From assembly GCA_964577995.1 (NCBI GenBank), contig CAZOBP010000004.1, positions 1 to 46,678 of the forward strand: a stretch of DNA of 46,678 bases. The letters run 5' to 3'. This document shows, piece after piece, positions 2,943-40,310 of the stretch. The position numbers were made by a program, and so were the translations under genes. Under the pieces are notes generated by a model that searched no databases, was not told where the DNA came from, and was given only the letters and a program-made list of their open reading frames with translations. The stretch is from an uncultured Anaerolineales bacterium (GTDB lineage Bacteria; Chloroflexota; Anaerolineae; UBA7937; B3-Chlor). Each line of letters opens with the position of its first letter. The first letter of the stretch is position 1.

Positions 2943-3327
2943 CAACTTGCGCACAGGGATAGCGCAGCAGCCTGTCGCATACCGTCTACCCGGCGAACCT
3001 CGTACCCCAGCCAAGAGACCTACGAGCGGATGGCTTCAGGTCTCTCACAGACACGTGCAACGATCTGCACTGCGATCCATCCGCGACAATGGGGATCGGA
3101 CCGCCTCATCGCCAGACAGGTGGCCTTCACGCACGACTGTAATAACACAGTCCAGAGGTCGCCGCAGGGTGTCTTGTCGACACCCTCCAGGTTCCTCGCG
3201 CCGCCGGACGCAATCCTGCGCAGACGGTGGGTCGTATCCCAGCCCGGCCTGAGCTCTCTTGAAGGAGAAAGCGAGGGATTCCAGCGAAGGCGCTCCTATC
3301 GGTCTGCAAGATTCTCCCGCCAAGGTC

Positions 3328-3356
3328 TTGCGGAATCCCGGGAAATGTGCTATAAT
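3328..3356 (+). promoter_or_regulatory. sigma70 promoter of the nusA-infB operon
   Basis: TTGCGG-17 nt-TATAAT with extended -10 TG. Confidence 0.75.
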
Positions 3357-3381
3357 AACAAACAAGTCGTCCTCCCCTCGA

Positions 3382-3410
3382 AAAAGTGGGCATGCCCCAC
3401 TTTTCTTATT
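3382..3410 (+). terminator. rimP/nusA-leader-type attenuator hairpin
   Basis: AAAAGTGGG-CATGC-CCCACTTTT followed by CTTATT, 25 nt after the -10 box. Resembles the conserved GTGGG...CCCAC terminator-like leader of rimP-nusA-infB operons. Confidence 0.7.
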
Positions 3411-28608: not shown

Positions 28609-29664
28609 CTAGACTACCTCAATGCTGCCAGAACCCTCCACGACCTCTCCCACGATCCAGTACTGCTGTTCCTCGTTGGAGAATAGGTCGGCCAGCCTAT
28701 CCGCGTCATCTGGAGCCACGCTGATCAGCAAGCCACCGGATGTCTCGGAAGTGAAGAGCAGCATCTGCAACTCGTCGGATATGCCCTTGGCGAAACGGAC
28801 GTGTGCCTCGTAGGCGTCCTTGTTGCACGACGCGCGCCCGGGAAACAACCAATCGTTGGCGTACTCAGTGGCCCCTTCGAGGAACGGCAGTTCGTCGAAG
28901 GGGAAGCGCATGCCAACCTCACTCAACTCAGCCACCTCGTAGGCGTGGCCCAGCAGCGCGAAGCCGGTGATGTCGGTCACGGCGTGGACATCGACCTGCT
29001 TCATCAGTTGTGCTGGCCTGCGACTGAGTGTCAGCATCTGCTCCACCGCGCCCCTCAGGTGCGCCTCTTGAGCGACTCCTCCCTTGGCCGCCGTAGTGAT
29101 GATACCCACACCGAGGGGTTTGGTCAGGAATAGCACGTCACCCGGCTGCGCTCCGACCTTGGTGGTGACCTCCTCTGGATGCACGAATCCCACCACCGCC
29201 AGACCGTACTTCGGCTCTTCGTCCTCCAGAGTATGTCCCCCGGCGATGACGCCACCCGCCTCTGCGACCTTCTCGGCCCCTCCCCTGAGGATCTCAGCCA
29301 CTATCTCCGTGGGCATGTCCTGCGGGAAGCCGCACACATTCAAGGCCAGCGCCACCTCTCCGCCCATGGCGTATACATCGCTCATGGCGTTGGCCGCAGC
29401 AACCGCCCCGAACTCGTAGGGATCGTCCACCACAGGGGTGAAGAAATCGGTGGTGAAGATGAGAGCCAGTTCCTCACTCAACCTGTAGATAGCCGCGTCG
29501 TCGCCCGTCTCTAATCCGACCAACAGATCCGGATAGTCCTCCGGGCGGAATATCTCTGCTAGAGGGCGCACGACCTGCGCCAGGGCCTCAGGGCCCATCT
29601 TGGACGCTCAACCAGCCGCCTTGGTCAGGCTCGTCAAGCGACTCCAGTTACGTTCAGCACTCAT
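28609..29664 (-). CDS. selD: Selenide, water dikinase (selenophosphate synthetase), selenocysteine-containing
   Basis: The track ORF starts at the internal MGPE. The real ATG is 29664 (GGAGGAAAGG RBS): MSAERNWSRLTSLTKAAG-UGA-ASKMGP. UGA (29608-29610) sits at the catalytic Cys/Sec position. Motifs DDAA, TTDFFTP, ANAMSDVYAMGG, GGHT, LTKPLG, DITGFALLGH, ETSGGLL. Confidence 0.95.
29565..29596 (-). promoter_or_regulatory. SECIS element of selD
   Basis: GGGCC-CTGA-GGCCC (loop 16 nt after UGA), then GGCGCA-GGTCG-TGCGCC (loop 32 nt after UGA). The GCA-GGUC apical motif resembles the E. coli fdhF SECIS. Confidence 0.75.
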
Positions 29665-36109: not shown

Positions 36110-36223
36110 GCCTCCAGTCCCTCCCCAGACTGCACTCAGAATGATGCCTCTCGACCGAGGCCCGGACGACCAGGCTGGGCGAGCGACAAGGACACCCGCC
36201 CAGCCCTGCCGCAGTCCCCATGC

Positions 36224-37658: not shown

Positions 37659-37701
37659 ACAAAATCCTCACCACCCAGCCGCCAGATCAGATGGTGAGGA
37701 C
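37659..37701 (-). terminator. Intrinsic terminator candidate (attenuator) upstream of yedE
   Basis: GTCCTCACCA...TGGTGAGGAT stem (9 Watson-Crick bp plus G-U pairs), then TTTTGTAT. Confidence 0.65.
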
Positions 37702-37733
37702 TCCTCGAGGATACGAGGTAATCCAGGGACACA

Positions 37734-37886
37734 CTAGTAGTGGTCCTCCACCATCCACCGCGGCTGGGGAACGTAGACCCGGACCGATGTGAGTCTTAAG
37801 ACCTTAAGACGCCGCACGGCGTCCGGTCAAGTACCTCAACCGGTTCGCTGCCACAGATACCGCGAAACAGCACGAATGTCCATCAT
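37734..37886 (-). CDS. Putative leader peptide B with tandem in-frame UGA (Sec) codons: MMDIRAVSRYLWQRTG-U-GT-U-PDAVRRLKVLRLTSVRVYVPQPRWMVEDHY
   Basis: GAGGTG SD 6 nt before ATG, right after the DUF3343 stop; UGA at 37836-38 and 37827-29; SECIS-like hairpins downstream; TAG at 37734-36. Confidence 0.6.
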
Positions 37887-37896
37887 CCGATACACC

Positions 37897-38124
37897 TCAC
37901 AACGCACAGATCTCTTCGAACTCGACGCGCGACGCGTCGAGAACCGCTCGCAGGTTCTCCACATCCGCAGACTCGAACCTCAGACATACGCCGCAATCGG
38001 AGCTTAGATGCCTGGGCACCGGAATGAGCTTGACCTTCAGGTCTGCCTTCTTCGCCAGCTTCTCAGCCCGTATCGCGCCACTAGTGGAGTGGAATAGGAC
38101 GACGCTATGTTCCGAACTCGCCAC
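37897..38124 (-). CDS. DUF3343 domain protein
   Basis: VLFHSTSGAIRAEK...LIPVPRHLSSDCGVCLRF. Confidence 0.88.
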   Translation of the reverse strand: MASSEHSVVLFHSTSGAIRAEKLAKKADLKVKLIPVPRHLSSDCGVCLRFESADVENLRAVLDASRVEFEEICAL

Positions 38125-38134
38125 CGTTTCCCTC

Positions 38135-38729
38135 CTAGGGAGCGACTACGCTACCGGCTGCCAGCAACGCCTCGGCGATAGAGTACATGTTGGAAACCTG
38201 TCCCACGACTATCTTGTCCTTGAGTCCGAAATGACCAAGACAGGTACCACAGGCCAGTATCTCCACGTCCCTCTGCTCCAGAGCTTGCAGATCCTCCAGG
38301 ACAAGAGAACCCTCAACCGTTAGCTTCACACCGGCGGTGAGAAAGATGATGGTGTCGGGCAGCGGTCCACTTCGTGGAGCGTGTGGACAAAGGAGCGTAT
38401 CAAGATGCCGCCCAGTTCGTCGTCCCCGCGTCCCATGCCGTCACTGGGGACAAGCACCACGGTCAGTCCTGCCAATCCGCCGATCGTCCCGGCCCGGACC
38501 GTGCTCTTCTCCGATGGTTCGCCCACCTTGCTCATGTGTAGATCTGAGCCATCCTCCTTCTCTTCTACCTCCAAAGCGAAGCCTTCTCTGGCCGCCATGC
38601 ACGACACGTTGCTCTTGGCCGTCGCGTTGTCCACGATCGTCGTCACCTGATCGGTCTCGGCCATGGCCTTCCTGCTCTGGATCACCGGCTGAGGGCACGC
38701 CAGCCCCCACAATCCACTACGTCGCTCAC
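38135..38729 (-). pseudogene. yedF: Selenium-metabolism YedF (SirA-like + DsrE-like), with two 1-nt deletions
   Basis: Restored sequence MSDVVDC(R)GLACPQPVI...GRGDDELGGILIRSF...HEVD(P)LPDTIIFLTAGVKLTVEGS...ACGTCLGHF...VSNMYSI. Frameshifts at about 38708 and about 38364. Confidence 0.85.
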
Positions 38730-39936: not shown

Positions 39937-39958
39937 TTGTAACACCTCGTGGATGACG

Positions 39959-39980
39959 AAAAAGAGGGATTGATCCCTTC
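39959..39980 (-). terminator. Intrinsic terminator candidate (attenuator) just upstream of the desulfurase RBS
   Basis: G(A)AGGGA-TCAA-TCCCTC followed by TTTTT. The stem is short. Confidence 0.5.
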
Positions 39981-40053
39981 ATCTCCTACGATTGCGATCC
40001 AGCGTCGCCAGCAGAGCCCGCAACCCTAGTAGAGGAGGAACCAGGAGAGGAAT

Positions 40054-40218
40054 CTAGAGGAAACTCAACCCAGGTCGGCCTCCACTCGAGGAAGCAGGTC
40101 TCGGCGAACTGAGAAGGATATCAAACGAAGCCTGATGCATCCCGTGCATCGCGCCAAGGGCTTGGCTTCAGCCCATTCAGGTGAATGGCATCGAGCGACA
40201 CTTGTTCCAGCGCGTCAA
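40054..40218 (-). CDS. Putative leader peptide A with tandem in-frame UGA (Sec) codons: MTRWNKCRSMPFT-U-MG-U-SQALGAMHGMHQASFDILLSSPRPASSSGGRPGLSFL
   Basis: Perfect SD AAGGAGGTGA (40225-34) before TTG 40218; UGA at 40177-79 and 40168-70; SECIS-like hairpins; TAG at 40054-56. Confidence 0.55.
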
Positions 40219-40281
40219 CCCTGCTCACCTCCTTCCCCGACCTGAGTCTAACGCCCTCGGATGGGGCGGATTCCGGCTCTC

Positions 40282-40310
40282 ATTCTACGGCATTCTCACA
40301 GCGATGTCAA
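40282..40310 (-). promoter_or_regulatory. sigma70 promoter of the selenium operon
   Basis: TTGACA-17 nt-TAGAAT, about 345 nt upstream of the first large CDS. Confidence 0.8.

Follow-up and report, generated by a model that had tools for sequence, protein, structure and literature searches.

Ribosome-mediated attenuation of the trp and his operons couples the charging of a tRNA to transcription: tandem sensing codons precede mutually exclusive hairpins, so that a masked antiterminator leads to termination and uncharged tRNA leads to read-through. Stop codons can serve similar ends, as prfB senses the level of release factor 2 (RF2) by a frameshift at UGA, and tnaC senses free tryptophan via peptide-mediated inhibition of RF2 together with Rho. 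Here, we have analysed a stretch of 46,678 nucleotides (nt) from an uncultured Anaerolineales bacterium of the Chloroflexota (contig CAZOBP010000004.1, hereafter the window). On its minus strand, upstream of the putative selenium transporter gene yedE, lies an element that we call leader B, a short open reading frame (ORF) with two in-frame UGA codons followed by hairpins. We argue from sequence comparison and RNA folding that leader B is probably a ribosome-mediated transcription attenuator that senses the reading of UGA as selenocysteine (Sec).

The E. coli trp, his, leu, thr and pheA leaders resemble leader B in having an ORF led by a Shine-Dalgarno (SD) sequence before supply genes, tandem sensing codons, a terminator, which in leader B is a putative one, and an antiterminator that is masked by the ribosome at the leader stop. 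Leader B differs from these amino-acid leaders in that its sensing codon would be a recoded stop, which needs a Sec insertion sequence (SECIS) in cis within the ORF as well as SelB. Failure to decode would result in release-factor termination, upon which the ribosome leaves instead of stalling, and the genes controlled import or traffic an element rather than synthesize an amino acid. As in prfB and tnaC, a stop-codon event in a short upstream frame would set downstream expression, but what leader B would sense is the SelB-Sec-tRNA complex, through recoding.

Two described systems connect selenium status with RNA hairpins or UGA decoding. The 5' untranslated region of E. coli selAB, like leader B, carries a SECIS-type leader hairpin and gives negative feedback of Sec status; in selAB, as summarized in PMC13449736, the hairpin lies 3 nt from the SD and translation is repressed through the binding of SelB, with no UGA or leader ORF. 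In leader B, by comparison, the hairpin lies within an ORF at UGA decoding distance. Some 250 nt separate it from the SD of yedE, and a putative terminator and an antiterminator are linked to it. The fdhFSec gene of Treponema primitia also ties UGA decoding and selenium status to transcript elongation, but the effect occurs inside a selenoprotein structural gene and has the opposite polarity, selenium being needed for full-length mRNA (PMC3892789). A dedicated leader ORF and an antiterminator, as in leader B, are missing from fdhFSec. Full-text literature searches, which covered sources other than subscription-only literature, found no published UGA/SECIS leader attenuator. Reviews of prokaryotic selenium metabolism and of selenoproteomes mention no such leader (PMC5322559, PMC13188914), and the study that defined YedE, YedF, DUF3343 and LysR_Se stated that the regulatory network was not understood (PMC5322559). 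Bacterial selenium sensing and the control of selenium uptake are largely an open question.

Leader B and its alternative pairings

The elements of leader B are given below in the order of transcription.

37898-37893, minus strand: SD sequence GAGGUG, overlapping the stop codon of the DUF3343 gene (37899-37897)
37886-37734, minus strand: leader B ORF, 50 codons plus UAG, from the ATG at 37886 to the UAG at 37736-37734
37838-37836, minus strand: UGA 1, codon 17, 32 nt ahead of the GGUC loop
37829-37827, minus strand: UGA 2, codon 20, 23 nt ahead of the GGUC loop
37823-37808, minus strand: first hairpin after the UGAs, GACGCC-GUGC-GGCGUC, with a GUC common to the next hairpin
37810-37793, minus strand: SECIS-like hairpin GUCUUAA-GGUC-UUAAGAC with a GGUC apical loop
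37768-37743, minus strand: 5' strand of the antiterminator, within the final 12 sense codons of the leader B ORF
37701-37659, minus strand: terminator-like hairpin GUCCUCACCAUC-14 nt-GGUGGUGAGGAU, then UUUGU, -21 kcal/mol

An earlier note on this DNA had described the SD, the ATG, the tandem UGAs, the 50-codon frame, the hairpins, the terminator and the antiterminator, and each of them is found on the minus strand just where it had been placed. With both UGAs read, the peptide would be MMDIRAVSRYLWQRTG-U-GT-U-PDAVRRLKVLRLTSVRVYVPQPRWMVEDHY.

Genome and metagenome scans, together with contigs of close YedE homologues, yielded 13 distinct copies of leader B (YedE identity 83-96%), always located between DUF3343 and yedE. 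Twelve were aligned (alignment A3), and the remaining copy, L163, was left out of the alignment. The ATG is kept in the 13 relatives, and a purine-rich SD lies 5-9 nt before this invariant ATG in all 12 aligned sequences. UGA 2 is invariant (13/13). UGA 1 is kept in 11 of the 13, so that the tandem proposed earlier stands as UGA-N6-UGA for these copies but not for the L084/L085/L162/L168 lineage, in which UGA 1 is GGA and UGA 2 is found alone. The codons that flank and separate the UGAs are variable (GGU ACU, GGU GCU, GGU GUU, GGA GCU and AUG ACC), while CGUCUUAAGGUCUUAAGAC is invariant in A3 except for a change of the loop from GGUC to GGUU in L161. The ORF is 153 nt long in all 12 aligned sequences, without any indel or extra in-frame stop, and its stop codon, UAG or UGA, falls in the same column in every one of them; indels are present downstream of the ORF. 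The frame of L163 has six fewer N-terminal codons and stops one codon earlier, but its geometry from the UGAs on is the same, with one stem pair of the hairpin changed from U-A to U-G. L163 also has a called gene (2151-2492, 113 residues, without a Pfam match) inserted between the terminator and yedE, and its leader is intact.

The N-terminal part of the peptide varies in sequence and, in L163, also in length. The conserved residues, RLKVLRL and QPxWMxExHY, correspond to the nucleotides of the hairpin and of the antiterminator strand. No NCBIfam family matched the leader peptides when U was replaced by C. Coding by the antisense strand or by an alternative frame was ruled out, as stops occur in every other frame of the relatives.

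The earlier note had also enclosed both UGAs in a hairpin, CCGGUUGAG-GUA-CUUGACCGG. This hairpin can indeed be drawn in the window, with two G-U pairs, but it is not conserved: 77.8% of the cells in the alignment pair, and 3-4 of 8 relatives have lost it. We rejected it as a conserved element.

The hairpin that resembles a SECIS is the second one after the UGAs, and a comparison for it is found within the window itself.

28609-29664, minus strand: selD, starting at ATG 29664; TIGR00476, 346 bits for the ORF 29598-28609
29581-29565, minus strand: selD SECIS, GGCGCA-GGUCG-UGCGCC, with the same GGUC loop as leader B

selD surfaced in a scan for UGA-ended short ORFs with a downstream G-loop hairpin. 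It has an in-frame UGA at 29610-29608 and a conserved N-terminus, MSAERNWSRLTSLTKAAG-U-ASKMGPEAL; judged by its sequence, selD is a selenoprotein gene, and its in-frame UGA and SECIS imply that the host decodes Sec. A plain ORF caller would cut selD short at 29598. At a distance of exactly 32 nt, an in-frame UGA precedes the GGUC loop in leader B (UGA 1) as well as in selD. No other hairpin of at least 6 base pairs (bp) on either strand of the 46.7-kb window has a GGUC loop, and the 16-nt core of the leader B hairpin occurs once in the window against 0.05 expected. A GGUC-loop hairpin at a fixed distance after an in-frame UGA is likewise the arrangement of E. coli fdhF. Leader B departs from the fdhF and selD elements in having two UGAs per hairpin, an A-U-rich stem and no bulged U, and in a product that is apparently a disposable regulatory peptide and not an enzyme. 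The first hairpin, which RNAalifold also returns, is paired in 95.8% of the cells in 8 relatives, without compensatory change; a smaller hairpin precedes the SECIS-type hairpin in leader B, in selD and in leader A, the second leader of the window, alike. When a ribosome is modelled at UGA 2, the GGUC hairpin forms.

Downstream of the hairpins, the transcript can form two mutually exclusive structures. The terminator-like hairpin has 12 bp, extendable to 14-16 bp, and its 5' arm and loop make up the 3' strand of the antiterminator. The core of the antiterminator is the pairing of GAUGGUGGAGGAC (37755-37743) with the terminator 5' arm. This core had been recognized earlier, but its extent was understated, as a second helix, between CCCAGCCGC (37768-37760) and GCGGCUGGG (37682-37674), adds to it. 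In the minimum-energy fold, 37768-37743 is paired with 37701-37674, that is, with the 5' arm and loop of the terminator. A simple terminator scan left out the leader B terminator because its loop is 14 nt, while the unguided RNAalifold consensus contains it as a 16-bp helix.

Both structures are maintained by covariation. In the 12 sequences, pairing reaches 97.2% in the terminator, where columns 212/247 (UA to CG) and 217/242 (AU to GC) show compensatory changes, and 99.3% in the antiterminator core, where columns 168/212 and 162/217 show them. Since columns 212 and 217 change together with their partners in the terminator and in the antiterminator, the shared strand covaries with both. Shifting the partners by 1-3 columns, as a control for either structure, lowers the pairing to 33-60%. 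Of what the earlier note had expected to see in relatives, the SD, UGA 2, the open frame and covariation are kept, and UGA 1 gives way in one lineage.

Folding with ribosome-masked segments, which the same note had suggested, switches the structures as it predicted. The antiterminator is obtained in the free RNA and with a ribosome that has UGA 1 or UGA 2 in its A site; the terminator, at -21 kcal/mol, is obtained with a ribosome that has the UAG in its A site. Among the relatives folded in this way, 6 of 8 form the antiterminator in free RNA and all 8 form the terminator in masked RNA. The leader stop is fixed just past the antiterminator strand, 33 nt ahead of the terminator. No pairing equivalent to the 1:2 helix of trp was identified in leader B.

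A further short frame lies between the terminator and yedE.

37641-37630, minus strand: SD sequence GAGGAAGGGAGG, conserved
37621-37604, minus strand: 5-codon mini-ORF, MQGKY-UGA

RNAalifold pairs the GAGGAAGGGAGG SD with UCCUCGAG, just upstream of the terminator. The mini-ORF has 5-6 codons across the sequences. Past its UGA, the frame of the window and of L001, L002 and L167 is open as far as a UGA overlapping the start codon of yedE. In L083 the UGA of the mini-ORF is UGG and the ORF reaches the start of yedE, and in L162 the stop is UAG. The mini-ORF of L084, MVNERW, resembles the leader MVNQRWW of L050. We considered this frame as a third Sec sensor and rejected it, as no SECIS-like hairpin follows its UGA and as the UGA is UAG in L162 and UGG in L083.

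Leader A and leaders at other yedE loci

A second tandem-UGA leader, leader A, is found upstream of sclA at 39950-40310 on the minus strand.

40218, minus strand: start codon of leader A after the SD GGAGGUG; TTG in the window, with ATG as the next in-frame codon in L001 and L086
40179 and 40170, minus strand: the two UGAs, in MTRWNKCRSMPFT-UGA-AUG-GGC-UGA
40150-40134, minus strand: hairpin GAUGCA-CGGGA-UGCAUC
40056-40054, minus strand: stop codon reached upon read-through
39978-39965, minus strand: terminator-like AGGGAUCAAUCCCU, then CUUUUU, just before sclA

The UGAs of leader A lie 32 and 23 nt before the loop, the same distances as in leader B. Leader A is conserved in L001, L002 and L086, with the tandem UGA GCG GGC UGA in L086, and its first hairpin covaries (GCCAA/UUGGC to GCCGG/CCGGC).

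Leaders that are unrelated in sequence but built alike, in which an SD-led short ORF has a UGA and a G-rich-loop hairpin, precede yedE at other Chloroflexota loci (L050, L063, L019 and L093/L115/L145). L050 has MVNQRWWPIHPT-UGA followed by a hairpin with a CGGGU loop, and L063 has UGA AUU UGA. Over 160 yedE loci, such a hairpin follows 16 of the 107 SD-led short ORFs that end with UGA and none of the 80 that end with UAA or UAG.

In L093 (788-1050), L115 and L145/L146, the frame MGKLQTTFSLR-UGA is followed by two hairpins, the first of which covaries, then by a sequence beginning GGAGAGAGAG, by CUCCCUCC and by the yedE SD. The read-through part spans a purine-rich stretch that could compete with the CUCCCUCC anti-SD for the yedE SD, and the L093/L115/L145 family looks like a translational, SD-sequestering version of the sensor. 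In L019 (3866-4003), the read-through frame, MVDRWRSCIPPP-UGA and onward, passes over a terminator-like hairpin and its UUUUUU before it stops at a UGA overlapping the start codon AUG of yedE.

The yedE loci of Thermodesulfobacteriota and Nitrospirota showed no such leader, and many of them have a conserved promoter/operator motif of the TTCCAGTTTGACATAT type in its place. At Thermodesulfobacteriota-type yedE loci (L013, L020, L022, L031, L033, L040, L044, L047-L049, L073 and others), a conserved motif, ATCG(G/A)AATTTCCAGTTTGACATAT, lies about 100-150 nt upstream of yedE. This ATCG motif looks like a promoter with a transcription-factor operator, by which yedE would be regulated otherwise than by UGA leaders. 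L166, whose YedE is 73% identical and whose gene order is selD-yedE-tusA-sclA, has direct repeats of the AAAGUC type followed by inverted copies (GACUCUUUGACUCUUCGACUUUUUGAC) upstream of yedE (3280-3400), and no UGA leader.

Proposed mechanism and its alternatives

We propose that a ribosome would start the leader B ORF at ATG 37886, and that the GGUC hairpin, acting as a SECIS, would recruit SelB-GTP-Sec-tRNA(Sec) to the ribosome at the UGAs of codons 17 and 20. When charged Sec-tRNA is plentiful, both UGAs would be decoded, and the ribosome would reach the UAG at 37734 and cover the 5' strand of the antiterminator (37768-37743). With this strand covered, the terminator (37701-37659) would form and transcription would stop before yedE-tusA. 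When selenium is scarce, RF2 would end translation at a UGA and leave the antiterminator strand free to pair with the emerging terminator 5' arm, and the polymerase would read into yedE-tusA. The proposal presumes real termination at the hairpin and a kinetic coupling between ribosome and polymerase, and its polarity would be OFF in selenium-replete cells. The outcome would be negative feedback on the supply of selenium, in which the end product of the pathway is sensed, like Trp-tRNA in the trp leader. Such an attenuator had been put forward in the earlier note, and the conservation of the frame and of the UGAs, the geometry common with selD, the covariation and the masked folds all speak for it.

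We would like to point out several observations that weigh against this proposal. The support for it is wholly computational. The 13 sequences amount to about five independent lineages, which makes for modest counts of covariation. In 2 of 8 relatives, the free RNA already has the terminator as its minimum-energy fold, and several relatives have a poor U-tract, such as CUUCGUGUUU in L084. The isolated 48-nt segment does not have the GGUC hairpin as its minimum-energy fold, because GGCGUC is common to the neighbouring hairpin. UGA 2 sits 9 nt nearer to the loop than in the geometry of selD, and it is the UGA that one lineage has by itself. Inserting Sec twice in a row may be inefficient, in which case the switch would be ON most of the time. 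The genes selA, selB and selC are absent from the window, so that the Sec machinery of the host is deduced from selD. Rfam gave no family for the operon, at the gathering thresholds or at E<=10, or for leader B searched by itself; its SECIS models also miss the selD SECIS, which we used as a positive control, so that this silence is uninformative, as the models do not cover the lineage. Finally, no clear antiterminator was found in leader A, whose free and masked minimum-energy folds show the terminator-like hairpin only, and the frame of L019 may act with the opposite polarity or by translational coupling, so that polarity may differ between leader families.

It is conceivable, but in our view unlikely, that leader B senses Sec or SelB with the opposite polarity or by another route. 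In one version, a stop at UGA would uncouple translation from transcription and lead to Rho- or hairpin-dependent termination, so that selenium would turn yedE ON; a UGA-dependent effect on transcription is published for fdhFSec (PMC3892789). The L019 frame, which crosses a terminator-like hairpin and ends on the yedE AUG, would favour the ON state upon read-through, and the weak U-tracts of some relatives are also in line with this. In the other version, the binding of SelB to the hairpin would act without UGA decoding, as at the published SECIS-like operator of E. coli selAB (cited in PMC13449736). The leader B ORF, however, ends just past the antiterminator strand, with 33 nt left to the terminator. 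This is the geometry of an OFF response upon read-through, and neither the Rho nor the SelB-only version needs a covarying antiterminator. The conservation of the SD, the ATG and an in-frame UGA at SECIS distance argues for decoding, and the distance between the hairpin and the SD of yedE is about 250 nt, as opposed to 3 nt in selAB. Negative feedback also fits an importer.

Another explanation is that the leader B ORF encodes a functional small UxxU selenoprotein, a redox protein or selenium carrier, and that the terminator merely ends its transcript. UxxU selenoproteins do exist (PMC13188914), the UGA-N6-UGA is in frame with a SECIS that has the geometry of a true selenoprotein gene, the neighbours are selenium-carrier genes, and the C-terminal RLKVLRL and QPxWMxExHY are conserved. 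We nevertheless regard it as improbable. The conserved residues coincide exactly with the nucleotides of the SECIS and the antiterminator, so that constraints on the RNA explain them, whereas the N-terminus is variable in sequence and length, the first U is replaced by G in one lineage, and no NCBIfam family matches. Leader A and the leaders of other Chloroflexota have no peptide similarity beyond an R-W patch, and a selenoprotein would leave the antiterminator without a reason. The least probable explanation is one unrelated to Sec, in which an ordinary UGA-ended leader ORF belongs to a generic attenuator or another RNA switch and the GGUC hairpin is there by coincidence. In its favour, these GC-rich genomes use UGA more often than any other stop (1267 of 2405 short ORFs), and no Rfam SECIS model matches. 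Against it, the loop and spacing are identical to those of the selD SECIS, a second in-frame UGA is retained, neither a stop nor an indel interrupts the 30 codons past the UGAs in 12 sequences, and the design recurs, in several unrelated families, only before selenium genes and never with UAA or UAG.

Turning back to the attenuator sensing Sec decoding, we think it rather likely that leader B belongs to an undescribed class of regulatory leaders in the Anaerolineae and related Chloroflexota, in which SECIS-directed recoding of UGA in a short ORF serves as a sensor of selenium status. The class would include the two leaders of the window, acting in series with leader A before sclA-yedF-DUF3343 and leader B before yedE-tusA, and the SD-sequestering arrangement of other lineages. 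If this is true, bacteria would have a direct and testable mechanism of selenium sensing that reads out the SelB-Sec-tRNA complex, and classical attenuation would be extended to a recoded stop codon. The 21st amino acid would have its first attenuator in leader B, whose hairpin would be the first SECIS used for regulation and not for protein function. A rule for annotation would follow, namely that a short ORF with a UGA and a hairpin before a selenium gene is a leader, neither a broken gene nor a new selenoprotein. The leader could possibly be used as a compact selenium-responsive genetic switch, and its tandem UGAs are a natural test of the way in which one SECIS serves two nearby UGAs.

The selenium-supply operon

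The genes on either side of leader B are listed below.

38124-37897, minus strand: DUF3343/Se_S_carrier gene, PF11823, with its stop TGA at 37899-37897
37544-36468, minus strand: yedE, putative selenium transporter, TIGR04112 (seleno_YedE), 481 bits
36224-36442, minus strand, after yedE: tusA, PF01206

The order on the minus strand is a promoter-like site, leader A, a gene for an sclA-like Sec/Cys lyase, yedF, DUF3343, leader B, yedE and tusA, and by their family matches all five genes belong to selenium supply (PMC5322559). The sole strong promoter-like site, TTGACA-17-TAGAAT at 40310-40282 on the minus strand, has 11 of 12 consensus matches, and the promoter scan found none between leader B and yedE. 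No tRNA or tmRNA gene was found in the region. By its relatives, the window belongs to the Anaerolineae (Chloroflexota); the YedE proteins of L001 and L002 are 95% identical to that of the window.

A match to the Guanidine-III riboswitch of Rfam at 36141-36200 on the plus strand, between tusA and a radical SAM gene, is below threshold (19.1 bits against a gathering cut-off of 36, E 0.9) and is probably due to chance. The yedF gene (TIGR03527; 38135-38763, minus strand) is split into two ORFs in different frames, with the frameshift at about 38345-38365, near HEV-PLPDTIIF. It is whole in L001, L086 and L162, while L164 has a heavily degraded copy and L161 and L167 have remnants of it. It seems that yedF is either undergoing loss in this clade or affected by a sequencing error in the window.

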